A stretch of 64,000 bases of DNA from Candidatus Limnocylindrales bacterium (GTDB taxonomy: Bacteria; Patescibacteriota; Microgenomatia; Levybacterales; UBA12049): positions 49,374-113,373 of the forward strand of contig DATLDE010000011.1 in the NCBI GenBank assembly GCA_035526025.1, given 5' to 3'. The notes beneath the pieces were generated by a model. That model saw only the letters and a program-made list of their open reading frames with translations. It was not told where the DNA came from and did not search any database. Below, piece after piece: positions 6,184-28,124 of the stretch; position 1 is the stretch's first letter, and each line of letters begins with the position of its first letter. The translations under genes were made by a program, and so were the position numbers.

Positions 6184-6286
6184 AATTATTTTTGAGGAAA
6201 AGAATTAAACTAATTAGTTCTTGTGAGGGTCGCAAAGCGCAAAACACAATCTCTTCTTACATTTCTATTTATTATACCAGATCTAG

Positions 6287-12213: not shown

Positions 12214-12454
12214 ATATGATTAGTATATAACTATATATGCCTAGTTGTCAATCGCCAAATTATTTGCTCTTATTAAGAGCTTTTAAGTGCTTTTACAATG
12301 CTTCTTTTAGGGGTCTTACCCCTCTAATGCAAGGGTAAAATGCACTCCTCATTCTTCGTCGCCCTTGCATTATTCACCCTGCTTATGACTTTCAGTCAGG
12401 TAGTCGGGCATGGGCATGCCCGACAAAAACAATTATGAGAAAGGAGGTGAGAAT

Positions 12455-12790: not shown

Positions 12791-12837
12791 TGATAGTGGG
12801 GTGCTGACAAAGTGCCCCACTATTCTAATATGCTAGA

Positions 12838-13629: not shown

Positions 13630-13788
13630 TATGTTTGTTTTTTTTGTATATATTTATTTTTTACTTTTATTATTTATGCCATGCCCAACCGTATTAATAT
13701 ACTCCGTTATTTTTAAGGGTAGGTGTCACAATTCTATTGCATATTAGCTTCAAATTAGCTTAAAAATTGTCGTTAACATCAACGACAA

Positions 13789-16548
13789 TTAAATATATTG
13801 TTGTTTTATAGTTTTTATTCCTTTTTTAACCCCGTTTGTTTTTACTGTGAGCTTACTTGCTTCTAGCAATTGCTTATCTTTTTTTTCAGAGTCTGTTTTC
13901 TTTGTGTTTCCTTTTGTAGGTACTGCTTTGAACAATTTTTCCAGTTGCTTTTCAACATCTGCTTTTGGAGTCGCATAGTGTGCCCTTGAATTCTCAATAA
14001 TCTTTTTTGCTGTTTTGTCACTCCCTTGTTCTGTTACGGGTAACGTAACGCCTGAAAATGCATCTTCTGAATGCTCATTGGTCACTTTCATATAGAAGTG
14101 GTGTGGCGCAAGATTAACTATTGCCCCTTTTTCTACTTCCGGCTCAAGGAAGGGTAGAAGGATTTTTTCATCATCAGGTCCGTTTTTAAGAGCAATTAAG
14201 TTTCCACTATTACTTAAAACTATCTTTGATAATTTTGGATCTTCAATTTGGGCAATATTTTGATGAGACGGCGTGAAGTAAACATGATACTTTCTTGCTT
14301 CTGAAAAAAGATCAGTAAAATGCGCACTTGCAAAGTTTTGAAATTCATCGATATAAACATAGAAATGAGATCTATCTTTTTCCGGTATTGCGGCTCTGGC
14401 ATATACAGCCAGTTGGATAAGGGAAAGTATTAGCGTGCCAAAGAACGCACTCCGCTCTTCTCCAAGCTTCCCTTTTGAGAGATTTACCAGAAGAATTTTA
14501 CCCTTATCCATTATTGCTGAAATGTTAATTGTTGTATTTTTCTGAAGTAAGATATTTCTTGACAATTTATCTGTCATAAATTCACCCAGTTTGTTGGTCA
14601 AGGGGGAGGCAGCATCTGCCTGCTGAATTTTGCCATATGAGCTATACTCTTTTTCCCAGAATTGCTTTAATACAGGATCAGTAAGAGTTTGAGTAACAGT
14701 TCTTCTATAGTCCTTATCAGTTAACAGTTTTTGAATTGCCATTAAAGAAATGTATGGAGTCTCAGGAGTCGGAGTATGTACCTGGAGTGCAGTAAGCGTG
14801 GCATTTCTGAGGATATGCTCCATTTTCTGACCCCAATGCTTCTCTGGTGTTATTTTCATAAATACAGCCATTAATGACCTGGCAATGAAACCATGCTCCT
14901 CATCAATATCTGAGAATTTTATATCTGGGGAGAGTATATTAAGTCCCAATGGAAAATCTTTATCAGAAGGATTAATTAGGACTACATCTTTCAATCTGTG
15001 TTTGGGGATAAGAGTCAGTAAATGCTCAATCAAATCCCCATGAGGATCAAGAATTGCAATCCCTTTCCCATTTTGAATGTCTTGTAGTGCCATACCTTCA
15101 ATAATGGTTGTTTTACCCATACCTGTTTTACCGACAATGTACGTGTGCTCCTTTTTATTCTTATCAGTTAACCCTACTTCAGTTTTTTCTCCACCATAAT
15201 TATTTGTACCAACTACAACGTCAAACTGCGTTGCTGTTTTTTTAAATGAATGAGGAGCAGGTAGTTCCTTACTTTTGCTTTTAACCATATCCTCAGTTTT
15301 GGTTGTTTGAGTGTAAGGCAAGTGATAGATGCTTGAGAGTTCTGTAACTGATAAGAAAATTGTATGGGAAAAAGAAAGGAGCCTGTTACCAAGTTGGTAG
15401 ACAGAAAAGAGTAAAATATATTGTTTTATTCTTTTAGGAATGAATGATGAAAAAACTGTGTGACGCGGAATAATTGCCTGATACTGGGCATTATCAAATG
15501 TTGAAAGTGTTGCCTGGAACCCCCTTATCCTCTCCCTAACAATATTCGAGTTATTTCCAATAACAAGAAGTCGCATGCTTGTTTCAAACACAGGAAGTTG
15601 TAACTTATCCTGTACCTGCTGAAACAATACTTGTTGAGTAGCTGTTGGGGTAAAGACTTTCTTGGGCTTTGCCTCATAATTATTACGTGGAGCTGGTTGG
15701 TTACTGCTACTTCTCAGTGCAATATCAGCAAAAAAACCAATAATTCCAACTAATAACCCAAGAGTCCAATAAATTAATTTACTAATTACATTAATTGGAA
15801 AAACAATGACTGAAAGCAATCTATTCTTTTGAATAATTGGTGAAATATCCTTATTGTGCCAGAGGTGATTTAGTAGCTTATCTGCCTCCTGTGTTTTTGC
15901 CCTATTACTTGCCTTGTCCATAGGAGAAAGGATTAATTGCAGGGAAATAAGCTCCTGTGGTGCAAGCTTTGTCATATTGCCTGTTAGGTATGCAATTGGA
16001 TCATGCTCTCTTAGTTTTGTTTGATCTGTTAGAGGGATAGCGAAGTGGTTTACTAAACGGAATGTTATTAACCGTATAGCTTTACTTGCTGTGAGAAAAT
16101 TTCTTATGCCTTCAAATGATCGCGGAAGATAATCAGCTACCTCCTCTATCTCAACACTTGGTAAGTATGAAAGAAGTGTTTTTCGTATAACTGGGGCATC
16201 AGATTTAGCTGTGTGAATAAGATAACGGATTCCTTCTTCTTTGGTTGCAACAAGCTCAACACTGATTGTTGTTTTGTCATGTATAAATCTTTGCCAGAAT
16301 GTTTTTCCTTTGATTAGCGAATGGAGTTGGGTAAATAACTGCTCTGTAGCATAGGAACTCTGGAGTGTTTGCTTGATTGGTTTAATTGAAAGAACAACAT
16401 GTGGGGTATTGAGTTTCCTTTTTAGCAGTAAATACCTGGAGAGGAGATAAACTATGAGCAAAGTAAATGCTACGCATGAGAGTAATATTAAGTACGCTGG
16501 AAGAACTGCCAGAAATGATATATATTGTGTTGGCATATGCAATATCAA
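13789..16548 (-). CDS. conjugative-transfer-type P-loop ATPase (TraG/TraD/VirD4 coupling-protein-like, or VirB4-like), membrane anchored
   Basis: N-terminal TM helices. Walker A YIVGKTGMGKTTIIEG near residue 480, followed by IAILDPHGDL. Walker B YVYIDEFQNF. Lys-rich C-terminal tail. Confidence 0.6.
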   Translation of the reverse strand: MILHMPTQYISFLAVLPAYLILLSCVAFTLLIVYLLSRYLLLKRKLNTPHVVLSIKPIKQTLQSSYATEQLFTQLHSLIKGKTFWQRFIHDKTTISVELVATKEEGIRYLIHTAKSDAPVIRKTLLSYLPSVEIEEVADYLPRSFEGIRNFLTASKAIRLITFRLVNHFAIPLTDQTKLREHDPIAYLTGNMTKLAPQELISLQLILSPMDKASNRAKTQEADKLLNHLWHNKDISPIIQKNRLLSVIVFPINVISKLIYWTLGLLVGIIGFFADIALRSSSNQPAPRNNYEAKPKKVFTPTATQQVLFQQVQDKLQLPVFETSMRLLVIGNNSNIVRERIRGFQATLSTFDNAQYQAIIPRHTVFSSFIPKRIKQYILLFSVYQLGNRLLSFSHTIFLSVTELSSIYHLPYTQTTKTEDMVKSKSKELPAPHSFKKTATQFDVVVGTNNYGGEKTEVGLTDKNKKEHTYIVGKTGMGKTTIIEGMALQDIQNGKGIAILDPHGDLIEHLLTLIPKHRLKDVVLINPSDKDFPLGLNILSPDIKFSDIDEEHGFIARSLMAVFMKITPEKHWGQKMEHILRNATLTALQVHTPTPETPYISLMAIQKLLTDKDYRRTVTQTLTDPVLKQFWEKEYSSYGKIQQADAASPLTNKLGEFMTDKLSRNILLQKNTTINISAIMDKGKILLVNLSKGKLGEERSAFFGTLILSLIQLAVYARAAIPEKDRSHFYVYIDEFQNFASAHFTDLFSEARKYHVYFTPSHQNIAQIEDPKLSKIVLSNSGNLIALKNGPDDEKILLPFLEPEVEKGAIVNLAPHHFYMKVTNEHSEDAFSGVTLPVTEQGSDKTAKKIIENSRAHYATPKADVEKQLEKLFKAVPTKGNTKKTDSEKKDKQLLEASKLTVKTNGVKKGIKTIKQQYI

Positions 16549-16719
16549 TAATTTTGAGGCAGTAGTCTAAAGCGGACAGAGGTTTTAGATGAAGCTGATG
16601 ATATCAGAAAAGGTTATTTAAGTACAGATGTCATACAATACCCAATAACCTGCTAAGAGACTTTTTTAATACTTGAAGTTTTAGAGCATGATGGGAAAAA
16701 AGACCAAAGCATCTTGGTT

Positions 16720-17655
16720 TTAAGCAGCAATCTTGTCATAGTAAAATAACTTTCCTCTTACGTCGTCAAAGCAGCGTTTCGAAGTTAGAGCTGATGGTAT
16801 ACCATTTGCATGCCCAGCTTGTTGATAAGCTTGCCATTCTTCAGGATCAAATCTGTCAACATATTCACTGGCATCTCTAGCAATAAAATAAACTGGTATC
16901 CCCGCAGCTAAAGCTGTAGTTCCTTTTAAAAATTCACGCCTATCCTTTAATGGTTCTTCTTTCTTGTTTATATAAGACACTGCAGCAATTTCAGCTGCTG
17001 CAGCTGCTGCTACGTATGGAGCTGTAGCTAAAGTTAATTTTTTCATACCGTATAATGCGGTTACAGCATTTCTAGTGTTTTCACCTCGTCTCCCACCTTG
17101 CACTACGTGATATAGCTCATGAAAAACTACTCCATTTAGTGCAGAATTCCAATGCGGAAGAATGTCTGGGGCTATTTCTAAAACTATTGGATCTTCAGGA
17201 TACATAGGGTGACGTACTGTGCCTGAAAATCCGCTATGTCCATCTCCGTTACCCCTATCTTCTTTACGCATTTGATTTATTTCTAGTCCGTATTTTTTAA
17301 CGTATGCAGATACTCTGTCTACCTCAGAGACTCCTCCGTCAAGATAGGATAAGTAAGTTAGGGCACGAGACATAGTATCCAAATTGACTGCGGGTTGGCT
17401 TGGACTTCCATCTGATCCTCCACCTATTACTATAACAGTGTCAAACTTTCCAGCTTTCATGTATTTTTTTATTTCCTCTGCCTTGGGCTTTAGAAGTTCA
17501 GCAGTTTGTGGAGATATATCATAATCAGGACCAAATGTTCGGTTTTCATAGGCTTTACTTCCCAGGACCCCCCCCAATACAGTAGCAACTCCCGCTTTTG
17601 CACCTAAACGTAAGAATCTTCTTCTGCCTATGCTTACAGGATCTCTTTCCGCCAT
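16720..17655 (-). CDS. Tat-signal secreted protein with HExxH zinc-peptidase-like motif
   Basis: N-terminal RRRFLRLGAKAGVATVLGG. FHELYHV is an HExxH motif. A second internal Tat-like motif, DRREFLKGTTALAAGIP, is also present. Confidence 0.45.
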   Translation of the reverse strand: MAERDPVSIGRRRFLRLGAKAGVATVLGGVLGSKAYENRTFGPDYDISPQTAELLKPKAEEIKKYMKAGKFDTVIVIGGGSDGSPSQPAVNLDTMSRALTYLSYLDGGVSEVDRVSAYVKKYGLEINQMRKEDRGNGDGHSGFSGTVRHPMYPEDPIVLEIAPDILPHWNSALNGVVFHELYHVVQGGRRGENTRNAVTALYGMKKLTLATAPYVAAAAAAEIAAVSYINKKEEPLKDRREFLKGTTALAAGIPVYFIARDASEYVDRFDPEEWQAYQQAGHANGIPSALTSKRCFDDVRGKLFYYDKIAA

Positions 17656-17870
17656 AATGCGGATTATATACCGTTCTAGGATAAATTTCTACACTATTTT
17701 GAGCAGGTTAATTCCCCACTAGAGAAAAAATATATCTAAGTCCATTTCTACAAAACTTAAAAATTTTTACATTAAACACTGTCATATTCAAAAATACATG
17801 AAAAAGTAAATAATTTTATTTTCCTATAGTACTTGTTTTTGCCATTTCAGGCTGCTAAAATAGGCAAATC

Positions 17871-18767
17871 ATGATGCAAGCCGAAAGAAGACCGAGCCGA
17901 TATGAGTTTGGTGATCTAAATAGAAGTCTTTTAAAGGATCTTCGCATTGTCCATTTGCCAGAAACCACCAGCACAATGGATTTAGTTGATGGATTAGCCA
18001 GATCATGGGCAAAAACAAAACGCGAATTCATACCCCCAGTTGTAATAATTGCGGATCATCAAACTGCAGGAATCGGCAGAGGAGATTTGGGAGAAGAAAA
18101 AAAGTGGCATGACATACCCGAGCTATCTATGCTTTTTAGCATTTTTATTCCAAAAGACAGAATAGAAGAAGAAAATCTACCCGAGTTATCAGATTTGGTT
18201 GCATTAAGAACATGCATGGCACTTAGAAAAGCAGGAGGAAATTTTCTTATAAAAGCCCCCAATGACATTGTTGACGCAGATACTGGTAAAAAGGTTAGCG
18301 GACTTCTTGTTAGATCGATTTATTCAGATGAAGGAGAATATTTGGGAGCAAATGTTGGAGTAGGTACAAATGTTCATTATAGAGATAATCAATTAGCTAA
18401 TTTTCCTGTGGAACCTGAATATGGAGCAATCTCAGTAGATAGCGCAACTGGTCAATTCAATAGTAGACAAGATTTATTGGTTGATATCTTAACTGGTATT
18501 TCCACAGTTGTTCCGGAAGCCGCCACTATCAATAAGGGAAGTGTTCATAACCCAACATCTGTTCATGCTATACAAAATGCCGAATGGAGAAGGCATTCAT
18601 ATTTACTAAATGAAAGGGTAGTAGTTAGAGAAGGTGAACAAGTCGTAGCCGAGGGAACAGTTGTTGACACAGAAATTGGTAACGGATTTATATTGAGATC
18701 AAATGATGGAATTGAGCATGCGGTACCGGTTTTTGGAACAGATACGAAGGTGAGGTTAGCTTCATGA
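17871..18767 (+). CDS. biotin--protein ligase (BirA-like; BPL catalytic domain + BPL_C-like C-terminus), paralog 1
   Basis: TSTMDLV...VVIIADHQTAGIGRGDLGEEKKWHD is a divergent BirA GRGRxGRxW block. The C-terminus VVVREGEQVVAEGTVVDTEIGNGFILRSNDGIEHAVPVFGTD is SH3-like as in BirA. Confidence 0.6.
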   Translation: MMQAERRPSRYEFGDLNRSLLKDLRIVHLPETTSTMDLVDGLARSWAKTKREFIPPVVIIADHQTAGIGRGDLGEEKKWHDIPELSMLFSIFIPKDRIEEENLPELSDLVALRTCMALRKAGGNFLIKAPNDIVDADTGKKVSGLLVRSIYSDEGEYLGANVGVGTNVHYRDNQLANFPVEPEYGAISVDSATGQFNSRQDLLVDILTGISTVVPEAATINKGSVHNPTSVHAIQNAEWRRHSYLLNERVVVREGEQVVAEGTVVDTEIGNGFILRSNDGIEHAVPVFGTDTKVRLAS

Positions 18768-19186
18768 TTGGTGAAGGATTTAGGAGATTACCCAGACCCG
18801 AAGGAGATGGCCATCCAACTAGAGAAGTACGGGGAAATGTTACTAGAAGTATCGAGCGTTTAAGGCCAGATTCCATAGCAGTTGAGTTAGTGCCACCTCA
18901 TGAGCTTATGCCATTTATTCTTCCTCCAAGTGCCGAAGGGGTAGTGCAAGCAATAGCGGCATTCGCAATCAGTGGAGAAACCCGTACTGCAGTTTGCGAA
19001 TTTGAAGATCGCAGAAACGATACGGTAACAAGAATTACTCTTGAAAATCCAACTGGTGATCCTTTCAACATGAGAATTACCCTTTCCAGTCCAGACAGAG
19101 AAGAAGGAGAAAAAGTACCACCCGGTATTGGCATTAAGGTTGTTGATAAAGAAGGAGCAACTCAAAAAGAGTTAGATAAAAAGTAA
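18764..19186 (+). CDS. hypothetical protein
   Basis: 140-aa ORF overlapping the ligase stop. No recognisable motif. Confidence 0.35.
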   Translation: MIGEGFRRLPRPEGDGHPTREVRGNVTRSIERLRPDSIAVELVPPHELMPFILPPSAEGVVQAIAAFAISGETRTAVCEFEDRRNDTVTRITLENPTGDPFNMRITLSSPDREEGEKVPPGIGIKVVDKEGATQKELDKK

Positions 19187-19263
19187 GACTTTGGAGACGG
19201 CTGAATCCTCGAGAAGATCCTCTTATTCAAGTTGGACAGACAGTTGAGCCTGGAGCTACTCTT

Positions 19264-19446
19264 ATGCTTGCAACAAGAGGCAAAAGTATCAAAAGAAGAA
19301 TAAAACTTCCAAGAGATAAATTTCCCAAGGGAGGTAAAGTTACTGCTATTTACGTTGACCCAGAGGACAACAATGAAGAACTCCGAAAAAAGGGTAAATT
19401 AGTTAATGGTGAATTTGTTCTTGCAGTTATAGATCCAGTTAAATAG
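19264..19446 (+). CDS. small ORF of uncertain status (possible fragment)
   Basis: 60-aa ORF. The frame is open about 78 nt upstream of the ATG without another start codon. KGGKVTAIYVD is KOW/hybrid-barrel-like. Confidence 0.25.
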   Translation: MLATRGKSIKRRIKLPRDKFPKGGKVTAIYVDPEDNNEELRKKGKLVNGEFVLAVIDPVK

Positions 19447-19449
19447 CCT

Positions 19450-22400
19450 ATGCCTGTATCCGTTAAAGAAAGATCAAGAACTCCAGAAGAAGGTGTCCGT
19501 CCGATTCGTAAAATGTTTATTGCAAACCGCGGTGAAATTGCTGTGCGTGCTGCAAAGGCATGTGAGAGAAGAGGGATTGCTGCTGTAATCCCATATTCTG
19601 ATCTTGAGTCCGAAAGAAATTCTTACGCAACTCGTTTTGTGGATAAGAACGCTAACAAAGGCTGGGAATTAGCAGCTATAGAGGGATATAGTGGCGACGA
19701 AACGTATGGAGATCCTAACGCAATACTACAAGAAGCAATTATACATAATTGTGACGCTATTTTTCTTGGATATGGATTTTTAGCAGAAAACGCTGATTTT
19801 GTTAAGCAAGTTGAGGATCATAATGAGGCAAGAAGAAGCCGAGGGGATGAACCTATTCGTTTACTTGCTCCTGATTCACGTGCCATGAGGCTTTTGGGAA
19901 ATAAAGCAAATGCTCGGGAGTTTGTAAACACTGTTAAAGTTGGCCTTGGAAGAAACAGAAGAACAGTGCCCATTGTTGAAGGATCTGATAAGCCTCGAAC
20001 CCAAATTGAAGAACTAATAAGGGATGTTGAGGGGGACGGAAAGAGCAAAGAAGGTATTGGATATCCTGTTATGGTAAAAGCTCCTGATGGAGGTGGTGGA
20101 ATGGGTAATATTGTAGCACGTACTCATGCTGAGCTTGATGCAGCATATAGGGATCTTCGCGGAACAGGAGAAGATCAAGGATTAATTGTTGAGCACTATA
20201 TAGAAAACGCAATTCATGTTGAGATGCAAGTTATTGCTGATCAACACGGTAACGTTGTGATTTTGGGTGAGCGTGATTGCACTCTTCAGAGAAGAAGTCA
20301 AAAACTGGTTGAAGAGTCCCCATCTCCACATATAAATGAACGGCAAAGGAAGAAAATAACTGAAGAATCTGCTGCAATTGTAAAAAAAGCAAAATATTCA
20401 GGACCGGTAACAATTGAAATGATCTTTGATAAAGACAGAGTTGATGAAGACGGGGATATGTGGCATGGTTTCATGGAAGCAAATACACGCTTGCAGGTAG
20501 AGCATGTTGTAACTGAAATTCAGACAGGAATAGATATTGTTGACACAATGATAGATGTTGCAGAAGGTCGTGAGTTAAAATTTAAACAAAAAGACATTAA
20601 GCCTCAAGGACATACTATGGAGCTTCGTGTTTACGCAGAAGATCCTGACCGTAATTTTGAACAACAAGAAGGAATTTTAAATGTATTAAGTCTTCCTGAA
20701 GATGTGGAGGGAGTAAGGATTGATAAAGGATATGAAGAAGGTGATGAAGTATCAGTAGAATACGACGGAACGATATTTAAAATAAATATACATGGCGTAA
20801 CAAGAGCTGACATGCTTGAGCGGACAAGTCAAGTAATTGCAATGTGTGAAATTGCTGGAGTTAAAAATAATCTTGCCTTTCTTGATGAGCTTATTAATAC
20901 ACCAGAATTTCAACGAGGAACAGTGAAAACGAAATTTGTCGAGGAATGGGTAGACCGTAGGCGAAAAGAGGCAAGAGACCAAATAATGAATGAGTTATTG
21001 GGCGAAAATGGAACATTTACTCCATTTCCCCCATCAAAACTTCGTGATAATTTTCCTGTAAATCCAACTTTTAAAACTTCTAACTCTGCTGAATCCACAA
21101 CGCTAGAGGAAAGCCTTGCGCGACAGAAAGAAAAAACAGGATTAGAAAGAGCGTCAGAATATGGAATTGTTGAAAGAGATGGAGTTAGGTACGTATTATA
21201 TCTATTAAATTCCAAATTTAATGCAGGAACATTTGGAAAAGAAGAAGGGTGGATGTTGACCGATGCAATTAAACTTGCACATAAGTACAATCTCCCATTA
21301 ATAACAGATACTTCAACAGCGGGTGTCAGAAACACTGAAGGATCATACGGAATAGATATGATGATGAACTCTACCAGCGATCTAAGTGAATATCCTCCAC
21401 TTTTTCATATTGACATACGGCATGGATACGTATTGGGTGGAGTTCCAGCCTCATATTCTGGAAGAGCCAATTTGTTTATGGCGGTTAATGATGACGCTAC
21501 CAAAATAGGAATAACTGGAGCAAATGCATTGGCTGCTGGAGAGGATTTGCATCCTACTGACTTAGAAGGTAAGTCAAGCACAAAAGCTGCTGACGCATAT
21601 AGAGCATTGAATGAAAACCAAGAAGACGAAGGCGCTCCAGTGCATACTCCCACCCGTCATCACGAGGAAAGAACTGGTGCTGATATGCTGCCAGCAAGTT
21701 TAACAGAAGCTGGGGCAAAGATTAGCCATATATTACAAATTCTAAAATTCACTCATCCCCACATCAGATCAGATCTAGATACACATGTCTTTAGTCCACA
21801 TGAGCAAATAGGATACGGACATATGCCTCACGCTGTTACTCTTTACGATTCAGGTGAACAACGACCCGGTTTTGTGCCCCCAACAATCAGCCGATTATGG
21901 GAAAGGTTTGCGAGTAATAGAGGAAAAGAAAAAATTATTTTTGCACCTGAAACTCCAGAAATCACAATCGGAGAGAGAAGAAGAATAGTAAAGCACCCCG
22001 ATAGACCTACAGGTCTTGACCTTGTTGATACTGGTTCCGAACTTTTTGATGATGCTGTATTTCTTGATCATGTAACTTTTGTCGATAATGTACACCAAGT
22101 TCTTCCCATTACCTCGGCCTTAGTTCGCTTTGGTGATCACCCAATTTTAGTGGTTACTCAAAATCGTCAAGAGAGAATCAATGACGCTGGAGAAAGAGAA
22201 ATATATTACAAACCAATTCGTCCTACTGATTGGGAAGCCACAAAACGTCATCTTCAATGGGCAGAAAATGTAGGTATCACAGTTATGCTAATGGGCGACA
22301 CTTCAGGAGCAGATTCAAGTAGGCAGGCTGAAGACCGGGGACAAGAAATTAAGCTCGCCGAAATATCGCAATTTGTTCAACAGCTAAAAGTGCCAGTAAT

Positions 22401-22875
22401 TACTAATCAATCTGGACTAGGGGGAAGTGGTAGTGTTCTTCCCTTTAGTTGGTATGGAGATTATGCAGCCATGTGGGAGAATGCCACAAGGTGGCCAGCC
22501 GATGCCCCAGCAATGAGAAGCTTTATTGAAGGAGTCTCTCTTCTTAAAGAATCAGACGCAACAGCAGAGGAGATAGCAGCACTTGATTTATTTGCAGCTC
22601 AATTTATCGATGTTACTGCTGAAGCGCATCTAGCAAAAGGTAGGATTGATAAAATACTTCTAGAAGGACCCGGAGGTGCGCATATAAACCCAAGAATAAT
22701 TGTTGATAGTAACAGGGAGATGTTGAGAGACGTGTTACCAAAATTACGACAAAGATATCTTGACGGCACTTTACTTGAAGAAAGAAGGAGAAGAAAAGAG
22801 CATGTTGCATTGATTGGCTCCAGACCAAATCCAGACTATGCAGCACAAGTTGCTGAATTAGAAGAAAGACTTTAA
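19450..22875 (+). CDS. biotin carboxylase - carboxyltransferase fusion protein (acyl-CoA carboxylase-like BC + PccB/AccD-like CT), no BCCP domain
   Basis: BC motifs MFIANRGEIAVRAAKACERRGI, GYPVMVKAPDGGGGMGNIVA, ERDCTLQRRSQKLVEESPSP, FMEANTRLQVEHVVTE. First CT subdomain PLITDTSTAGVRNTEG...GGVPASYSG. Second CT subdomain VPVITNQSGLGGSGSV. No (A/V)MKM biotinyl motif anywhere in the 1141 aa. Confidence 0.7.
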   Translation: MPVSVKERSRTPEEGVRPIRKMFIANRGEIAVRAAKACERRGIAAVIPYSDLESERNSYATRFVDKNANKGWELAAIEGYSGDETYGDPNAILQEAIIHNCDAIFLGYGFLAENADFVKQVEDHNEARRSRGDEPIRLLAPDSRAMRLLGNKANAREFVNTVKVGLGRNRRTVPIVEGSDKPRTQIEELIRDVEGDGKSKEGIGYPVMVKAPDGGGGMGNIVARTHAELDAAYRDLRGTGEDQGLIVEHYIENAIHVEMQVIADQHGNVVILGERDCTLQRRSQKLVEESPSPHINERQRKKITEESAAIVKKAKYSGPVTIEMIFDKDRVDEDGDMWHGFMEANTRLQVEHVVTEIQTGIDIVDTMIDVAEGRELKFKQKDIKPQGHTMELRVYAEDPDRNFEQQEGILNVLSLPEDVEGVRIDKGYEEGDEVSVEYDGTIFKINIHGVTRADMLERTSQVIAMCEIAGVKNNLAFLDELINTPEFQRGTVKTKFVEEWVDRRRKEARDQIMNELLGENGTFTPFPPSKLRDNFPVNPTFKTSNSAESTTLEESLARQKEKTGLERASEYGIVERDGVRYVLYLLNSKFNAGTFGKEEGWMLTDAIKLAHKYNLPLITDTSTAGVRNTEGSYGIDMMMNSTSDLSEYPPLFHIDIRHGYVLGGVPASYSGRANLFMAVNDDATKIGITGANALAAGEDLHPTDLEGKSSTKAADAYRALNENQEDEGAPVHTPTRHHEERTGADMLPASLTEAGAKISHILQILKFTHPHIRSDLDTHVFSPHEQIGYGHMPHAVTLYDSGEQRPGFVPPTISRLWERFASNRGKEKIIFAPETPEITIGERRRIVKHPDRPTGLDLVDTGSELFDDAVFLDHVTFVDNVHQVLPITSALVRFGDHPILVVTQNRQERINDAGEREIYYKPIRPTDWEATKRHLQWAENVGITVMLMGDTSGADSSRQAEDRGQEIKLAEISQFVQQLKVPVITNQSGLGGSGSVLPFSWYGDYAAMWENATRWPADAPAMRSFIEGVSLLKESDATAEEIAALDLFAAQFIDVTAEAHLAKGRIDKILLEGPGGAHINPRIIVDSNREMLRDVLPKLRQRYLDGTLLEERRRRKEHVALIGSRPNPDYAAQVAELEERL

Positions 22876-22877
22876 AT

Positions 22878-23726
22878 ATGAAAACAGAAGCTGCAATTAG
22901 TGTTCGACCTTATACCGAATATGATCAGAATAGAGTCAGATCTGCAGTGGGAGCATTGGGATACGATTTTCAATACCGTCAGATCACTGGAACCACCATG
23001 GATGATGCTCTGTCTTCGGAAAGACCTACTGTTTGGGTTGCTGATAGTCAAAGAAATGGCCGAGGAAGAACAGGAAATAGATGGGAAGACACATCAAAAG
23101 CAAATGTTCTGGTAACAGTTGCCGTCGACCGGATAAAACTTTCAAATCCTTTACTGCTTCCTCAGCTTGGTGCATTGGCTGCCTGCAGGGCTGCCAGAAC
23201 AGTTACAAAAAGTGATGCTCCTCAGATACGTTGGCCCTATGACCTAGAAATTGATGGTAAAAAGTTCGGGGGAGTATTGGTCGAACAAAAGGTTTCTGCA
23301 ACCGGAAAACCGTTAACCTTAATTGGCGTTGGAATGGATGTACATGATCAGTCTTTTCCTCAATTTCCTTGGGAAGCAGTAGCTCTTGAACAAGTACAAG
23401 GCATTGAATCAATAGATAGGAACGCACTATTAATTGAATTTACAAAAGAGTTAACTAGCCTGCTAGATATAATCGATATTGTTGATACTGATCCGCAAGC
23501 ATACGCAACATGGAACAACATTTGGATAGCTCATCAAAGCTTAGGAGGAAAACATGTTATAGCAGAGAATATCGGTCCAGATAAATTTGGGGACGTGGAG
23601 GGAATTGCAAGGGTACCTATGCTAGGAAGAGGGCTTGATTTAGTCACAACAGGTTTCGATGGATTGGAAAAAACTGTTACGGTTTCAAGCTGGAATCCCC
23701 TCTCTTTAATTAGAAACTTGGAATAA
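22878..23726 (+). CDS. biotin--protein ligase (BirA-like), paralog 2
   Basis: QRNGRGRTGNRWEDTSKANVLVTVAV matches the BirA signature GRGRxGRxW..G.xL. It has a C-terminal SH3-like domain. Its start lies 3 nt after the BC-CT stop. Confidence 0.65.
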   Translation: MKTEAAISVRPYTEYDQNRVRSAVGALGYDFQYRQITGTTMDDALSSERPTVWVADSQRNGRGRTGNRWEDTSKANVLVTVAVDRIKLSNPLLLPQLGALAACRAARTVTKSDAPQIRWPYDLEIDGKKFGGVLVEQKVSATGKPLTLIGVGMDVHDQSFPQFPWEAVALEQVQGIESIDRNALLIEFTKELTSLLDIIDIVDTDPQAYATWNNIWIAHQSLGGKHVIAENIGPDKFGDVEGIARVPMLGRGLDLVTTGFDGLEKTVTVSSWNPLSLIRNLE

Positions 23727-23730
23727 AAAT

Positions 23731-24360
23731 ATGCCAGTTGAACAAGCAAGGAACGTTTTCGTACTCGACATCGGTCAAGTCCTTGCCGACGGTGGACGGG
23801 AATATTTCACAAGAAGAAAAGGACAATTTAGTTTTAGAGATAGAGCCTCTCTTGCTATTGTTTATGATGATTTTGTTCCCCTACCAGGTTCGATAGAGGG
23901 AGTAGGTGCGCTTTCCAAAGTTGCTACATTTGGCGGATATTATACGGTAAGACCTCCAGAGTTAAAACAACAAGGAACCAACTGGTTGACCCGTTATAAT
24001 TTCCCTGATGCAGAAAATATCCATACCTGTGTAAATCACGAAGATAAAGTAAGACAAATTATCAATGATTTACTCTTGAATGAAGATGGCCAAAATAACA
24101 GAAGCGTTGTACTGATTGATGATAACTTGGACCCTTTACTATCCGCAGCTGAAAAACTGGTAGACCAAGACCCCCCCCTCAAGCAAGCAACTGAAAAATT
24201 AATTCTTGTAGGATTTGGAAAAAAACATCAAGATATGCCTCAAGGAGGAGTACATCTTGCAACAGGCATTAGAACATTCTCGCTTTCTTCCTGGGAAAAC
24301 CAGAATAGAGATGATCTTATTGGAGACTTGCAAATGTTATATCAGAGCCATTCAGGTTGA
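23731..24360 (+). CDS. hypothetical protein (degenerate HAD-like motifs)
   Basis: VFVLDIGQVL and VVLIDDNLDPL resemble HAD motifs I and IV, but motif I lacks the second Asp. Confidence 0.35.
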   Translation: MPVEQARNVFVLDIGQVLADGGREYFTRRKGQFSFRDRASLAIVYDDFVPLPGSIEGVGALSKVATFGGYYTVRPPELKQQGTNWLTRYNFPDAENIHTCVNHEDKVRQIINDLLLNEDGQNNRSVVLIDDNLDPLLSAAEKLVDQDPPLKQATEKLILVGFGKKHQDMPQGGVHLATGIRTFSLSSWENQNRDDLIGDLQMLYQSHSG

Positions 24361-24418
24361 TATGGCAATAAATTTACATTTGCAGTAATAATTAAGACTA
24401 TGTTATAATGCAAATCTT

Positions 24419-24781
24419 ATGGGAGCTCCACAAGAAAGAAATTGCGAAGCGCTGATTACTTACACTACGGTTAGGAGAGGTCAAGCAAGGTATGAAATTC
24501 TTAAACCACCTGAGGGCATGGAATTAAATTCTACAGGAATGGTTGCGAACAGAGAAGTAATTAGTGGCATAGAAGAGGTTTGCATAAATTGTGGGAGATG
24601 TGGAATTGATAATGTAAAGCGCAGGTCATCAGATAATAAACATCCATGGTCTGCTGCTGTTGGCGCAGAAAGACTAGCGGCCCAAGTACTTGAAGACCAA
24701 TGTCAGCCTTTTCAACCCCTGAAGGAATTGGGATTAAAGCCAAATAAAGATTTCCATCCAATGCTTACTCATATAAAATAG
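24419..24781 (+). CDS. hypothetical protein with CxxCxxC cluster
   Basis: 120 aa. CINCGRCG. Confidence 0.3.
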   Translation: MGAPQERNCEALITYTTVRRGQARYEILKPPEGMELNSTGMVANREVISGIEEVCINCGRCGIDNVKRRSSDNKHPWSAAVGAERLAAQVLEDQCQPFQPLKELGLKPNKDFHPMLTHIK

Positions 24782-24834
24782 GCCTACCGCGCGGTTATTT
24801 GAAGTCTTAGGGTTTGACATTTTATATTAAAAAT

Positions 24835-25548
24835 TTAATTTGTGGGCATTATCAAATCTCTTTCCATATCTATATTATCCAATAACAAATTCAACTCCAA
24901 TAATCTTACTCTACTTTCTTCAACTTCTTTAGGAGTCCTACTTCTTAATGGACCCAATATGAGTTCATCCCAGTGCTTGTATATGGCTGCATTTATTTGA
25001 GCGTTGATTAATTCGTCATCTAAAAATCCCGCAGCTGATCTTGGATCCTCATCTGAATCATTGGATCCAACAACTAACGGACGTGGTTCATCGGTAGCAG
25101 CCATTACTAAATCAGTACTTGGTCTCTCAGGATATTCAATATCATAATCTCTTTCGTAATCTTGCGCTCCTTCCGGCAAAAAAAGTGTTTTTTGTTTCCC
25201 GTCGCCAAACCAAATAAATCTCTTGCCTGCACCACCTCTGATATATTTATCGTCTACAAATGGGTCAGGAATTACAGGGGTAAAAACAATGTGCCCGTCA
25301 TATAAGCTTGGCCCCACAGGCTCATTGCAAACTGCAGATACGACAACCCCCCCCTCAGTATTTCTATAAAGAGAGATTCGCTCTTTAGATACGTGCGAAG
25401 GAATTGCGAGTCCGTTCGGATCTATTACAAAAGTGAATCCGCTCCGCTTTGCAAGCCTGCTTAAACGAGTTGTTGTTTGTTTTGCAAGTTCTTGTTCCGG
25501 AATTGGTACAGCAGCTTCATGTCTTTGCATGGGGCGATTATAGCACAA
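24835..25548 (-). CDS. hypothetical protein
   Basis: 237-aa ORF. Acidic. No motif recognised. Confidence 0.4.
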   Translation of the reverse strand: MCYNRPMQRHEAAVPIPEQELAKQTTTRLSRLAKRSGFTFVIDPNGLAIPSHVSKERISLYRNTEGGVVVSAVCNEPVGPSLYDGHIVFTPVIPDPFVDDKYIRGGAGKRFIWFGDGKQKTLFLPEGAQDYERDYDIEYPERPSTDLVMAATDEPRPLVVGSNDSDEDPRSAAGFLDDELINAQINAAIYKHWDELILGPLRSRTPKEVEESRVRLLELNLLLDNIDMERDLIMPTN

Positions 25549-25623
25549 ATTATGCCTATAATTAGTTTCTTACTGCGACCTTTTTATAAAAAGTGTATAA
25601 TCTAAAATAGAGGTAAATTATTT

Positions 25624-25827
25624 ATGGGAGCCAAACAACTAGGAAAAAATGTTAAGAAAGCCAGGGAAAAAGCAGGTTTGACCCAAGAGGAGCTTGCCGA
25701 AAAAATAGGCTTGCATGCTAGTTCTATTTCCCGCATTGAAAGAGGTGCTGCCAACCCTACGCATTCTATTTTGGATAATATCCGTAAACTCTTGAAAATG
25801 GATCCTTCGGAAATATTCCCCAACTAA
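25624..25827 (+). CDS. XRE-family HTH transcriptional regulator
   Basis: KAREKAGLTQEELAEKIGLHASSISRIERG is a canonical Cro/C1-type HTH. Confidence 0.75.
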   Translation: MGAKQLGKNVKKAREKAGLTQEELAEKIGLHASSISRIERGAANPTHSILDNIRKLLKMDPSEIFPN

Positions 25828-25830
25828 TAT

Positions 25831-26148
25831 TTATTCTGTTTTTTCATTTTCTTCGAAAACTTTCTTAGCAAACACCTGCATCAAATCAGCAAGAACGGTA
25901 GCTTGTTCATAAGTTGCGTTGGGATCTGTTTTCTTCAAGCTTTTTAGAGCTGATTTTATCAAAGCTTTGCGGTTTTTACTCTCAGCAGCAAACTGGAAAC
26001 TAGATTTTGGAATTCTCTTAAATACCTCCTTAAATAAACCTTTTTGGCTAATTTCTTTTATATCTTCCCAAGGCAAATCATCAATATTTGAAGTACTCAT
26101 GTTGTGAGTATAAATTTTTTGGAGGTATTTAACAAGAGATGTGATCAA
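25831..26148 (-). CDS. hypothetical protein
   Basis: 105-aa ORF. Confidence 0.35.
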   Translation of the reverse strand: MITSLVKYLQKIYTHNMSTSNIDDLPWEDIKEISQKGLFKEVFKRIPKSSFQFAAESKNRKALIKSALKSLKKTDPNATYEQATVLADLMQVFAKKVFEENEKTE

Positions 26149-26186
26149 CTTCTATTTTCACACTATTATTCGGGCCCGAACGTAAG

Positions 26187-27212
26187 CTATTTATTATCTT
26201 CTTCCCGCAATACTTTTTTTATCTCTTCAATTGTTAAACGTTTTTCAAGTTGCAATTGCCGAATACGCTTGACTACATCAATCGCTGAATGCTCATACAA
26301 TTGGTATCCACTTGGAGTATGATCTTTTGCGTTTAGTAATCCCTCTTTGGTCCAGAAGCGTAATGTGTGAATTGTCTCTCCTGTTTTCTTGGCAAGGCTT
26401 CCTATTTTTAAAAGTTCTTCTTGTGGTTGAGTCTCAAACTCTTTAAATACGGCGTTCTTTTTACTAAGTGCGTTTAGGTATATATCAAGTGATCTTTCAA
26501 CAGAGGTAAAGATAATTGTATAAAAGGGCTGCATGTCTTTTTTATTTTGTGCTGATTCAAATGAGTTAAGATATGCAGTTCTTTCTTCATTTCGTATAAT
26601 ACCCATTGGGTACCCATTCAGCAAAAGAATTAAGTTCATTAATAGTCTAGTTGTACGCCCATTTCCGTCAATAAATGGATGAATACTGACAAACTTCATA
26701 TGAGCATCCGCTGCGATTTTAACAGGATGATCATCTTGTTGTGCCTGAAGCCAACTGATGAAATTGCGCATTTCGATATGTAGAGAATTGGGCATGGGAA
26801 ATTCTGCATTTGAGCCACGAATAAAAACCTCAGTCAACCTGTATTTACCTGCCCAGTTATCGTCAATACCGGTCAAAATAATTTTATGAATGTCCAAGAT
26901 GTCTTTTTCAGTAATAAATTGATGGCTTTTTCGTGTCCGCGCTAACTGATTTATGAAATCAAGCGCTTTTGCGTGATTAATTGCTTCTATTTGATCTTTT
27001 AGAGGTTTACCATTTATAACAGCTGTTATGCCCCTCTCGATCACCTCTGCAGTTTCAATACGTGTTAAGGTGTTGCCTTCAATAGCGTTTGAGGAATATG
27101 TAAGCTCAACTTTTAGCCATTCTTCAATATTCTTTCGTAATTCCGGGGGAATTGGCTGATGAGAGTCCAGCTGCTTTTTTTTCTTAGTTAGCCTTAGAAG
27201 TAGATTATCCAT
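26187..27212 (-). CDS. Fic/DOC family protein fused to a C-terminal MerR-type HTH
   Basis: HPFIDGNGRTTRLLMNLILL is the Fic motif. An AIEGN inhibitory motif is present. The C-terminus LLKIGSLAKKTGETIHTLRFWTKEGLL is MerR-like HTH. Confidence 0.75.
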   Translation of the reverse strand: MDNLLLRLTKKKKQLDSHQPIPPELRKNIEEWLKVELTYSSNAIEGNTLTRIETAEVIERGITAVINGKPLKDQIEAINHAKALDFINQLARTRKSHQFITEKDILDIHKIILTGIDDNWAGKYRLTEVFIRGSNAEFPMPNSLHIEMRNFISWLQAQQDDHPVKIAADAHMKFVSIHPFIDGNGRTTRLLMNLILLLNGYPMGIIRNEERTAYLNSFESAQNKKDMQPFYTIIFTSVERSLDIYLNALSKKNAVFKEFETQPQEELLKIGSLAKKTGETIHTLRFWTKEGLLNAKDHTPSGYQLYEHSAIDVVKRIRQLQLEKRLTIEEIKKVLREEDNK

Positions 27213-27263
27213 TCATAAAGTATAAAGCATCACTTCATGCTTTGTCAAGTGGACAAGTTAAAA

Positions 27264-27461
27264 TTAATCACGCCTGACCCAAAACTCTAGAACACGTCTT
27301 TTCTGGGGATCAATAGTGATTTTGTCCCAATATTTCTTAAGATGTTTTGTATCAATTTTCTCTCCCTCTAAACCATAATTTATCAATTGCTCAAGCTTCC
27401 AAATAACATGTTTTTCAGAATTTTTCTCAAGTATTGCTGTGTCCGTACTCCAATTATGCAT
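27264..27461 (-). CDS. small hypothetical protein upstream of the Fic-MerR gene
   Basis: 65-aa Lys/Glu-rich ORF in the same orientation as the Fic gene. Uncertain. Confidence 0.3.
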   Translation of the reverse strand: MHNWSTDTAILEKNSEKHVIWKLEQLINYGLEGEKIDTKHLKKYWDKITIDPQKRRVLEFWVRRD

Positions 27462-27572
27462 AAGTCTATTCTACCAGATCCTAAGCGAATATTCAGCATA
27501 AACGGATGGCCTCAATTTAGCCTCAAAACAGCACTTGACAGAAATGGGCCACATTATGTATACTTCTTGTAT

Positions 27573-27845
27573 ATGAATACAACATCTATACATATAAAAA
27601 TAGAAGCTGATATTAAAGCACAAGCTCAAAAAACAGCAGAAGAACTAGGTCTTTCTTTGAGCGCTGTTATGAAAGCATTGCTCAAACAATTCATTCGCAC
27701 AAAACATTTATCCGTAGGATTAAGCGAAGAGCCTTCTTCCTACATGCTTGAAGCATTAAAAAAATCAGATAAAGAATATAAAGAAGGCAAAACTTCCCCA
27801 AGTTTTACCGCAGTTGAAGACTCTTTCAAATGGCTCGATCAATAA
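27573..27845 (+). CDS. RelB/DinJ-family antitoxin
   Basis: MNTTSIHIKIEADIKAQAQKTAEELGLSLSAVMKALL is an RHH DinJ-like N-terminus. Start at the internal ATG of track ORF 27387..27845. The stop overlaps the toxin start. Confidence 0.6.
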   Translation: MNTTSIHIKIEADIKAQAQKTAEELGLSLSAVMKALLKQFIRTKHLSVGLSEEPSSYMLEALKKSDKEYKEGKTSPSFTAVEDSFKWLDQ

Positions 27846-28124
27846 ATGAGCATGTCTATCAAGTATTCAACCACATTCAAAAAACAATATAAGAAAGCTC
27901 CAAAAAAGATACAAGAAAAAGTAAAAGAACGAATCAGTATTTTCGTTCAAGATCCTACAAATCAACAACTGAATAATCATGGTCTCACAGGAAAATTTCA
28001 GGGAATACGCAGTATAAACATCACAGGAGATTGGAGAGCAGTTTATTCAATACGCTTAAATTCACAATCACAAAAGGAGTATTATTTCGAGCTAGTGGGA
28101 ACACATAGCCAACTATATAAATAA
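27846..28124 (+). CDS. YafQ/RelE-family toxin
   Basis: HGLTGKFQGIRSINITGDWRAVYSI...FELVGTHSQLY matches the YafQ/RelE core. Confidence 0.7.
   Translation: MSMSIKYSTTFKKQYKKAPKKIQEKVKERISIFVQDPTNQQLNNHGLTGKFQGIRSINITGDWRAVYSIRLNSQSQKEYYFELVGTHSQLYK

Follow-up and report, generated by a model that had tools for sequence, protein, structure and literature searches.

A Fic gene in the window, by which we mean the whole 64-kb stretch of DNA analysed, belongs to a widespread, unstudied single-gene family in which a FICD-like Fic domain is joined to a C-terminal MerR-type DNA-binding domain. The protein, here called Fic-MerR, appears to repress its own gene at a MerR-style dyad, a predicted operator within its promoter. 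The best explanation of the locus is, in our judgement, a self-contained, autorepressed Fic-MerR module among independent neighbours, and we regard this as probable. The gene and its control region comprise the following features.

26187-27212, minus strand: Fic-MerR gene, 341 aa (Pfam Fic and MerR_1 matches, FICD-like class II Fic domain)
27072-27095, minus strand: inhibitory-helix motif SSNAIEGN, aa 40-47 (alignments to FICD and to homologs)
26646-26681, minus strand: Fic active-site motif HPFIDGNGRTTR, aa 178-189 (read from the sequence)
26202-26408, minus strand: MerR-type DNA-binding domain, aa 269-337 (HMM and PDB matches, predicted secondary structure)
27219-27248, minus strand: Fic-MerR promoter (promoter scan, 11/12 matches)
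27243-27248, minus strand: -35 hexamer TTGACA of this promoter
27225-27242, minus strand: 18-bp dyad, putative operator AAGCATGAAGTGATGCTT (conservation in relatives, dyad symmetry)
27219-27224, minus strand: -10 hexamer TATACT of this promoter

Both domains score above the Pfam cutoffs, Fic over aa 100-196 (3.1e-22, 79.7 bits; cutoff 24) and MerR_1 over aa 269-337 (5.7e-16, 58.8 bits; cutoff 21.6), and the Pfam MerR model matches as well (3.5e-8, 33.6 bits; cutoff 28.2). The active site fits HxFx(D/E)GNGRxxR and is conserved in 25 homologs, with H178, P179, F180, D182, G185, R186 and R189 invariant in their alignment; the stretch S40-N47, including S41-N-A-I-E45-G46, is invariant across the same 25. 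In the alignment to FICD (TVAIE234GN), Glu45 takes the place of Glu234, and the protein contains LAKKTGETIHTLRFWTKEGLL. Judged by these motifs, Fic-MerR is a class II Fic protein that carries the inhibitory helix within its own chain. With this helix in the same polypeptide, it is not a classical toxin in need of an antitoxin, and the FicTA class I arrangement, in which a separate antitoxin supplies the helix, does not apply, as the motif is found in cis; a conserved [ST]xxxE[GN] motif was not found in orf65 or orf89, the two small ORFs nearby.

The C-terminal domain aligns to positions 2-68 of the 69 in the MerR_1 model, PDB structures of MerR and CadR match it over their own residues 1-72, and its predicted secondary structure consists of a helix-turn-helix (HTH), a beta wing and then two helices. 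The chain stops 4 residues past the MerR_1 model, a boundary that is identical in 30 homologs, and the MerR dimerisation helix and effector domain are absent from the protein. The first-pass annotation had read an HPFIDGNGR active site, an AIEGN motif and a C-terminal MerR HTH from the protein; both motifs are present, and the MerR HMM match, the lack of which it had named as speaking against the HTH, was found. Its description of the fusion as unusual did not outlast a survey of its frequency: the best 120 database matches are without exception full-length Fic+MerR proteins (60-89% identity), and the combination occurs in ~40 of the 150 top-ranking clusters at the 50% identity level, spanning 10 phyla or more. 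It also persists where genomes are small, in Patescibacteria and Rickettsiales.

The case for autoregulation comes from the promoter. The -10 ends just 6 nt short of the ATG (27212), and the mRNA is therefore probably leaderless; in most aligned Fic-MerR loci, the distance from TATACT to ATG is 6-9 nt. The complete arrangement of TTGACA, the 18-bp dyad element (the window copy being AAGCATgaagtgATGCTT) and TATACT is found at 34 of 35 loci of MerR-bearing relatives and also in the window. Approximately 30 relatives, at 46-89% protein identity, share the -35, the 18-mer, the -10 and the short leader, and they come from Patescibacteria, Verrucomicrobia, Rickettsiales, Planctomycetes, Acidobacteriota and other phyla; in the upstream regions of these ~30, no conservation was found beyond the -35. 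Positions A1, A2, T6 and G10 of the 18-mer are invariant, and on average 5.28 of its 9 dyad pairs are complementary, against 2.56 +/- 0.26 in shuffles, the dyad being imperfect in that pairs 3/16, 4/15, 5/14, 7/12 and 9/10 are complementary in less than half of the sequences.

When the 100 nt upstream were scanned with a PWM, the best match had a median of 21.7 bits among the MerR-bearing loci, 33 of the 35 reaching at least 16 bits, with the reservation that 25 of the scored loci also trained the PWM and the independent cases are L026, L034, L039 and L042 plus the Fic-only negatives. The median among Fic-only relatives is -2.75 bits, and the element was found above 6 bits upstream of none of the 36. 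Two apparent Fic-only exceptions carrying the element are disrupted full-length Fic-MerR genes, and one outlier, L011, has an operator-like site at -142. Within the 64-kb window, the site in the Fic-MerR promoter is the sole one above chance, and 190 kb of the relatives' flanks held no further above-chance sites except a repeat in L030.

The HTH most likely binds the 18-bp dyad that fills the -35/-10 spacer of its own promoter; occupation of this operator would repress transcription, and the resulting negative autoregulation would ensure that little is made of a modifying enzyme that could be harmful. MerR-family regulators bind around position -21.5, and the element is centred at approximately -21.5. 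Classical MerR activators, however, work on a spacer of 19-20 nt and activate by untwisting the DNA; with a spacer of 17-18 nt, the analogy to MerR holds only in part, and this spacing together with the near-consensus hexamers argues for repression. The recognition-helix variants IHTLR, VPTIR and NSTIR group with the operator variants AAG..GCTT, ..ACGT and AACCGT..ATGGTT, a pattern that is suggestive only and may reflect shared descent, since the sequences are phylogenetically related. The earlier guess that the protein is self-regulating thus gains support from the conserved dyad, the predicted operator, in its own promoter.

The Fic part offers a possible source for the symmetry of the complex. 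The top PDB match of Fic-MerR is human FICD (2.2e-40, 37-39% identity over ~250 residues), the protein starting ~23 residues ahead of the aligned region, and Foldseek places the AF2 model, a monomer with pLDDT 82, on FICD with a TM of 0.65 at 37% identity. Glu242, Lys256 and Leu258 of FICD, the roles of which have been described along with that of Glu234 (PMC6826200), correspond to Glu53, Lys69 and Leu71, none of which varies among the 25 homologs in the alignment. The two-fold symmetry required by the operator would probably come from a FICD-type Fic-Fic dimer, as the HTH has no dimerisation helix of its own; with the AF2 model being monomeric, we infer the geometry in which such a dimer places two HTHs on one operator. 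More generally, we infer that Fic-MerR binds DNA, represses rather than activates, dimerises, and AMPylates and deAMPylates. One could go further and suppose that the operator-bound dimer is both repressor and deAMPylase while monomers AMPylate a target and de-repress the gene, giving a one-protein circuit through which energy or proteostasis status would govern a post-translational modification as well as transcription, but we consider this improbable. The monomer-dimer balance might then be shifted by a signal such as the ATP/ADP ratio, following what has been described for FICD, and DnaK/Hsp70 or a DNA-associated protein would be possible targets; were it true, the family would be a tractable prokaryotic model near the ancestor of metazoan FICD.

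A different role for the same architecture would be single-gene abortive-infection defence of the SoFic or PDC-S04 kind, the HTH holding expression low or sensing infection and the triggered Fic AMPylating an essential host protein. This is compatible with autoregulation, and only the biological role differs. The Fic part does match the PADLOC models PDC-S04 (1.2e-31) and SoFic (5.1e-29), SoFic is reported to be toxic and to act in defence by an Abi-type mechanism (PMC12249575), and the setting resembles a defence island, with toxin-antitoxin (TA) modules, an orphan antitoxin-like gene, the integration site of a mobile element and, at a distance of 18 kb, another SoFic-type Fic. The PADLOC matches, however, span only the generic Fic core (aa 40-281 for SoFic), and PDC-S04 is itself a candidate system; elsewhere the gene sits among housekeeping genes such as those for FtsX, PNPOx and SecA, it persists in the small genomes mentioned above, and no phage-sensing element is evident. 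We therefore think a defence role rather unlikely.

The conserved upstream block could also be read without an operator, as a strong portable promoter or as a recombination or cassette boundary, the MerR domain then acting mainly as a DNA tether for the enzyme, the substrates of which would be DNA-associated proteins. For the tethering there is a precedent in CbFic2 of Coxiella, whose AMPylation and deAMPylation activities are stimulated, via dimerisation, upon DNA binding through the HTH (PMC10628234). The right half-site overlaps a -10-like sequence, and given its resemblance to a -10 hexamer, the conservation could partly be that of a promoter and not of an operator; in L030, a second copy of the promoter block follows the gene, a cassette-like hint. 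On the other hand, ordinary promoters do not have spacers that are conserved from phylum to phylum, the dyad symmetry is significant, the element accompanies only the members with the MerR domain, and apart from the L030 repeat, neither the window nor the flanks hold other above-chance sites. This makes the reading an improbable one, and autorepression at the dyad remains our preferred account.

That account has the neighbouring genes independent of Fic-MerR. The first-pass annotation had combined them into an addiction island, with an XRE regulator and two small ORFs flanking the Fic gene and an overlapping DinJ-YafQ pair beyond; the regulator and the ORFs do exist at or near the positions it gave. 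The features concerned are these.

25624-25827, plus strand: XRE-family HTH protein, 67 aa (HTH_3, 6.8e-16)
25831-26100, minus strand: orf89, 89 aa (homologs; NCBI annotation)
26135-26107, minus strand: orf89's own promoter, TTGTTA-17-TATACT (promoter scan)
10372-26186, no strand: 15.8-kb segment missing here in the closest relative, L001 (blastn synteny, junction alignment)
27264-27461, minus strand: orf65, 65 aa, conserved Patescibacteria family
27535-27564, plus strand: dinJ-yafQ promoter, TTGACA-18-TATACT (promoter scan)
27573-27845, plus strand: RelB/DinJ-family antitoxin, 90 aa (Pfam RelB, TIGR02384)
27846-28124, plus strand: YafQ/RelE-family toxin, 92 aa (YafQ_toxin, TIGR02385)
27555-27572 and 27577-27594, plus strand: inverted repeat with 18-nt arms, likely DinJ-YafQ operator, covering the -10 hexamer and start codon

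A 105-aa version of orf89 (25831-26148, minus strand) was shortened to begin at its ATG, 89 aa being most likely according to the NCBI model. Synteny between L001 and the window breaks exactly at the stop codon of Fic-MerR, and the XRE gene and orf89 lie beyond the break. They stand at the end of the 15.8-kb segment, which begins at a tRNA-Leu(tag) with a large serine recombinase and by Pfam contains Replic_Relax, a T4 coupling protein, DUF2958 and biotin-carboxylase-type cargo, and which is probably an integrative mobilisable element. In other genomes, XRE and orf89 (11 homologous clusters) form a conserved pair, always convergent, at the edges of T4SS-type mobile elements, with no Fic gene. 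L001, with 89% identity in Fic-MerR, shares orf65, RelB-YafQ and trigger factor; more distant relatives have Fic-MerR alone in unrelated contexts, next to FtsX, PNPOx and SecA or to a GTPase and an HhH-GPD glycosylase, and at none of the other ~28 loci were homologs of XRE67, orf89, orf65, RelB or YafQ found near it.

The gene closest to the Fic-MerR promoter, orf65, belongs to a family of 51 homologous clusters and has no Pfam or PDB match. Its homologs are immediately followed, often with an overlap, by an AbiEii gene in 5/5 other genomes, and no AbiEii gene was found in the 64-kb window; orf65 is thus putatively an orphan antitoxin of an AbiEii-type toxin. One might imagine that it has been re-partnered from the AbiEii nucleotidyltransferase to Fic-MerR as its antitoxin or modulator, forming a new two-gene module. 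The two genes share a strand and are 51 nt apart, orf65 being the upstream one, L001 has the same arrangement with an 89% identical orf65 (82% nucleotide identity over the block), and orf65 has a plausible extended -10 of its own, TGgTAGAAT, 6 nt ahead of its ATG. Yet a complete private promoter with the putative operator stands between the two genes, orf65 lacks the [ST]xxxE[GN] motif, its relatives precede AbiEii and no other Fic-MerR locus has such a gene; a pairing seen in only two related genomes fits chance adjacency after the loss of AbiEii, and we hold the re-partnering to be very doubtful.

Least probable of all, and largely refuted by the comparative context, is a single addiction island containing DinJ-YafQ and a toxic Fic-MerR that is controlled or neutralised by XRE, the small ORFs or both: the genes are adjacent, E. 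coli SoFic has a small downstream antitoxin, AS1, of 47 aa (PMC12249575), and TA systems include Fic-Xre pairs (PMC2701414), but the XRE/orf89 pair is an element pair across the synteny break, orf65 has AbiEii as its usual partner, the neighbours are shared by L001 only, and Fic-MerR has its own promoter and an intramolecular inhibitory helix. As far as synteny and gene content tell, the supposed island consists of four independent units that are neighbours by chance.

One of these units, DinJ-YafQ, is by all its sequence features a standard autoregulated type II TA pair. The antitoxin matches Pfam RelB (1.9e-7, 31.3 bits; cutoff 22.4) and, slightly below the cutoff of 45.65, TIGR02384 (2.1e-11, 43.9 bits), and the toxin matches YafQ_toxin (2e-11, 44.4 bits; cutoff 30) and TIGR02385 (5.8e-13, 49.2 bits; cutoff 27.9). 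The start of the long antitoxin ORF at 27387 was replaced by the ATG at 27573; the resulting protein is 87% identical to the 90-aa gene of L001. In alignment with the E. coli structures, the toxin keeps His50, Asp67 and His87 and has His63 replaced by Asn, these four residues being what we take to be the catalytic set of E. coli YafQ. The pair proposed earlier is therefore genuine, but its genes do not overlap: the antitoxin stop codon (27843-27845) abuts the toxin ATG at 27846. Similarly, the proposed doubling of Fic and RelE modules in the region holds in part, the first locus being real.

7392-8426: first Fic, its C-terminus matching a winged HTH weakly and below the cutoff
6560-6832: RelE-type toxin of the first locus

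The PADLOC SoFic model matches this first Fic end to end (1.1e-45), and the 84-aa ORF upstream in the locus has no HMM match. With 28% identity between the two Fic proteins and 29% between the two toxins, they represent different subfamilies and not recent paralogs.

Overall, fusions of Fic with DNA-binding domains are known but, to our knowledge, the role of that domain has been established only for CbFic2, a pathogen effector. The comparative evidence suggests that a large, uncharacterised family uses a MerR-type domain at its own promoter, with an operator predicted to the base pair, and the family may provide a simple bacterial system for the dimer-controlled AMPylation/deAMPylation switch of human FICD. 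The locus also demonstrates that addiction-like clusters can be accidental, here the end of an element, an orphan antitoxin-like gene and a TA pair coming together at a tRNA-linked hotspot, and it calls for caution in the annotation of such islands.

Among known systems, the neighbours are the simplest to place. DinJ-YafQ agrees with other DinJ-YafQ/RelBE systems in gene order, sizes, HMM matches and the promoter inverted repeat, differing in the His63 to Asn change. Compared with AbiE/MenAT type IV systems, orf65 is far shorter than the classical AbiEi antitoxins, and while its homologs adjoin AbiEii on the upstream side, the window is without the toxin gene. Fic-MerR itself shares with FICD/HYPE the TxxIEGN-type inhibitory helix, the HPFIDGNGR motif and the dimer-relay residues; FICD, however, is a metazoan class II AMPylase/deAMPylase of BiP with a transmembrane anchor and a TPR domain, whereas the bacterial protein is without both and has the C-terminal MerR HTH instead. 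FICD selects BiP through the TPR domain, of which no Pfam match was found in Fic-MerR.

Proteins of the SoFic/CbFic2 type are likewise auto-inhibited Fic proteins with a C-terminal DNA-binding domain, but they are remote from Fic-MerR (E ~6e-7, 16-18% identity, poor global superposition), their HTH is of the DeoR/ArsR type, and they have a DUF4172-type N-terminus that Fic-MerR lacks. According to a proposal by Kinch et al. (2009), the HTH domains in Fic fusions control the expression of fic; a conserved autoregulatory operator is not reported for this type in the published accounts surveyed. The MerR regulators (MerR, CueR, CadR, ZntR and HspR) have a dyad operator in the -35/-10 spacer, as in the Fic-MerR promoter, where binding is predicted, but their wHTH is N-terminal and followed by a long coiled-coil dimerisation helix and an effector domain, whereas that of Fic-MerR is C-terminal on an enzyme and has neither. 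A domain similarly stripped of the dimerisation helix is found in the truncated-MerR antitoxins of PIN toxins (Makarova, Wolf and Koonin 2009; PMC2701414); these are separate small proteins without wing 2, while Fic-MerR keeps wing 2 (helices 3-4) and carries the domain fused in cis.

The 341-aa protein encoded at 26187-27212 on the minus strand, Fic-MerR, carries a Fic domain (3.1e-22) with the active-site motif HPFIDGNGRTTR at aa 178-189 and SSNAIEGN at aa 40-47, and ends in a MerR-type helix-turn-helix at aa 269-337 (MerR_1, 5.7e-16; 58.8 bits, cutoff 21.6), as the first-pass annotation had proposed. Among proteins of known structure, human FICD is the closest to it (phmmer 2.2e-40, aa 24-256). 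FICD also superposes best on the AlphaFold2 model (mean pLDDT 82), with a TM score of 0.65 and 37-39% identity; BtFic, CdFic, SoFic and CbFic2 rank behind it. Glu45 aligns with the inhibitory Glu234 of FICD, and Glu53, Lys69 and Leu71 with Glu242, Lys256 and Leu258, by which FICD dimerisation is relayed to the active site and the balance between AMPylation and deAMPylation is set (PMC6826200); all four Fic-MerR residues are invariant across 25 homologs. In the C-terminal domain, the helix-turn-helix of MerR type is followed by a beta wing and two more helices, after which the protein ends; both the long dimerisation helix and the effector domain of MerR regulators are missing, and the C-terminal boundary is identical in 30 relatives.

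On the minus strand, the sequence 5' of the gene reads TTGACA-AAGCATGAAGTGATGCTT-TATACT-ttatga-ATG, a near-consensus promoter whose 18-nt spacer is a dyad, the predicted operator. Because the -10 element lies only 6 nt from the start codon, the mRNA is probably leaderless, and the short leader is retained even in phyla where such leaders are atypical. The same layout precedes nearly every full-length relative, down to 46% protein identity and in very different host phyla, and the aligned upstream regions show no conservation beyond the -35 element. Among 25 aligned 18-mers, four positions never vary (A1, A2, T6 and G10) and three hardly do (A8, T11 and T18); of the nine symmetric pairs, 5.28 are complementary on average, whereas shuffled sequences give 2.56 +/- 0.26. 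With a PWM derived from this alignment, 33 of the 35 MerR-bearing loci show a site of 16 bits or more in the 100 nt before the start (median 21.7 bits). The training set included 25 of these positives, however, and the independent part of the result comes from four untrained loci, at 16-23 bits, and from the negatives: none of 36 Fic-only relatives exceeded 6 bits in the same interval (median -2.75). The two low-scoring MerR-bearing loci have the site at -142 (L011) or reach only 11.5 bits (L014), and the two apparent Fic-only exceptions are Rickettsia loci with disrupted full-length Fic-MerR genes. On two Rickettsia-labelled MAG contigs (L046, L048), full-length homology is broken across frames, with ORFs just 169 and 220 aa long, and the upstream operator is still present (15.5 and 22.7 bits); these are possibly pseudogenes or assembly errors.

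The operator is centred near -21.5, the classical position for MerR regulators. Since the spacers are 17-18 nt and the hexamers strong and near-consensus, its occupancy should repress, and for the same reasons a MerR-type activator was rejected as the leading model. Recognition-helix variants group with operator variants, a suggestive pattern confounded by phylogeny. We consider it fairly probable that Fic-MerR is an autorepressed, auto-inhibited FICD-like enzyme in which the Fic-Fic dimer would organise the pair of helix-turn-helices; our confidence in the composition is high, in autoregulation good, and in repression and dimerisation moderate. A role in defence by abortive infection is possible and compatible with autoregulation: PADLOC models PDC-S04 and SoFic match Fic-MerR (1.2e-31 and 5.1e-29), but the matches are confined to the Fic core, and many relatives lie among housekeeping genes.

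The promoter site, at 22.9 bits, is the sole match in the window above the shuffle maximum, and scanning the window and 190 kb of relatives' flanks gave only autoregulatory sites, one borderline site and one repeat, with no evident regulon. The borderline site, AACAATGACGCGATGCTT (5539-5556, minus strand; 18.4 bits), ranks second among the window's operator-like sequences and lies inside an ABC-F ATPase ORF (4711-6183); it is probably a chance match, because its score equals that of the best shuffle. The repeat is in a Rickettsiales MAG (L030, about 2850-2976 and 4100-4200), where the promoter/operator region of about 100 nt recurs directly downstream of the gene with an operator copy of 23.8 bits, and may be a tandem-duplication remnant or a sign of the gene moving as a cassette. 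A pure DNA-tethering role, by analogy with CbFic2, is less likely than autorepression.

Six ORFs occupy the segment 25624-28124, which the first-pass annotation had described as a single addiction island:

25624-25827, plus strand: XRE helix-turn-helix protein (HTH_3, 6.8e-16)
25831-26148, minus strand: orf89, start almost certainly ATG 26100, giving 89 aa as in the NCBI annotation
26187-27212, minus strand: Fic-MerR
27264-27461, minus strand: orf65, a small ORF
from ATG 27573 (true start), plus strand: RelB/DinJ antitoxin, 90 aa, matching the closest relative
27846-28124, plus strand: YafQ/RelE toxin

Shared neighbours are confined to the closest relative, L001, whose protein is 89% identical: it is colinear with window 29904-26188 through trigger factor, YafQ, RelB, orf65 and Fic-MerR, and colinearity stops exactly at the Fic-MerR stop codon. 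More distant relatives sit isolated among unrelated genes, and homologs of XRE, orf89, orf65, RelB or YafQ were found near none of the other Fic-MerR loci compared. The neighbourhood is not a single island, and the original island model is among the less likely readings; the observation is real, but the locus is ordinary as an island. The DinJ-YafQ module is of the standard kind and has a promoter of its own (TTGACA-18-TATACT), overlapped by an inverted repeat with 18-nt arms; its genes, described earlier as overlapping, in fact abut (TAA, then ATG), and the catalytic residues of YafQ are mostly kept in the alignment. In orf89, Fic-MerR, orf65 and dinJ (26107-26135, 27219-27248, 27462-27480 and 27535-27572) the -10 element lies only 6-9 nt 5' of the ATG, that of orf89 within TTGTTA-17-TATACT, and Shine-Dalgarno sequences are absent at all four starts; leaderless transcription seems to be the norm among these neighbours.

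That orf65 has been re-partnered as an antitoxin for Fic-MerR is also less likely. Its family (51 clusters, Patescibacteria; 62-85 aa, unannotated, consensus MHNWSTD...IWKLEQLINYGL.GEKI...LKKYW..I.IDP) gave no significant match in profile searches against PDB and Pfam, and an AbiEii gene directly follows the homolog in all five other genomes (L090, L092, L093, L095, L096). Family members often overlap the downstream AbiEii genes in Patescibacteria, and they are likely to form a new family of short antitoxins for toxins of the AbiEii/MenT type. In the window, tblastn with five AbiEii proteins found nothing better than E = 0.25.

Beyond the break, the closest relative passes from the Fic-MerR stop to a tRNA-Leu(tag) corresponding to window 10371-10224, and window 10372-26186 is therefore extra. 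The segment 10106-26186, missing at this site in that relative, is probably an integrative mobilisable or conjugative-type element at the tRNA gene:

10106-11827: large serine recombinase, its ORF running through tRNA-Leu(tag)
10229-10311: tRNA-Leu(tag), on the strand opposite to the recombinase ORF
12838-13629: Replic_Relax protein
13789-16548: type IV coupling protein
19450-22875: biotin-carboxylase/carboxyltransferase fusion, 1141 aa

It also holds DUF2958 and two BPL-family proteins, with XRE and orf89 at the end; the metabolic genes are either cargo or rearranged chromosome. Elsewhere, orf89 homologs always have a convergent XRE gene and adjoin Peptidase_M23, VirB4/TraG-type and TraC-like genes, so that XRE/orf89 is the terminal pair of a mobile element. 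The closest relative, element-less here, retains beside its tRNA some 50 nt similar to the 3' end of the recombinase (6166-6313; compare window 10106-10371), which points either to a hotspot of repeated integration or to an element that has decayed.

Another Fic gene lies between two tRNA-Leu genes and adjoins a RelE-type toxin-antitoxin pair (6560-7086):

6560-6832: ParE/YafQ-type (RelE-type) toxin
6832-7086: putative antitoxin, 84 aa, upstream of the toxin, without an HMM match (Pfam included)
7392-8426: full-length Fic protein of the SoFic type, described as anti-phage

The Fic protein aligns with the PADLOC SoFic model over its full length (1.1e-45) and has a Pfam Fic domain with weak, sub-cutoff winged-HTH matches. 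The earlier count of two Fic genes and two RelE-type modules holds, within 22 kb, but the two Fic proteins share only 28% identity and the two toxins 29%; at 28%, recent paralogy of the Fic genes was rejected. Gottesmanbacteria-type contigs (L006-L009) have two more Fic-domain genes (374 and 353 aa) less than 5 kb from Fic-MerR, and several Fic paralogs may be common in small Patescibacteria genomes. The source MAG (contig of P0001, P0121 and P0322) is labelled 'Candidatus Limnocylindrales' (Chloroflexota) at NCBI. Yet Fic-MerR, orf65 and orf89 have their nearest relatives in Levybacteria/Microgenomates and other Patescibacteria, and GC content is about 37%; mis-binning of the contig is possible.

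The architecture, taken at first as unusual, turned out to be very common. The best 120 matches in a collection of 5.8 billion proteins were all full-length Fic+MerR_1 proteins (60-89% identity), the named ones mostly Microgenomates/Patescibacteria, and when 50%-identity representatives were searched exhaustively, 435 clusters were obtained at E <= 1e-30, with alignments running through the MerR domain in about 40 of the best 150. Among species-representative genomes, full-length relatives (46-62% identity) occur in Levyibacteriota, Gottesmanbacteria, Saccharibacteria, Verrucomicrobia, Rickettsiales, Margulisiibacteriota, Acidobacteriota, Planctomycetes, Nitrospirota and Bacteroidota; shorter relatives, of about 250 aa and with the Fic domain only, are present in Clostridium, Bacillus and others. 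Our literature searches on Fic+MerR fusions found no relevant paper. Fic-HTH fusions in general, and the proposal that the HTH regulates fic expression, were described by Kinch et al. (2009); Fic-MerR is a MerR-type variant of this known kind, belonging to a large, catalogued but unstudied family, to which our analysis adds a testable operator prediction at the base-pair level.
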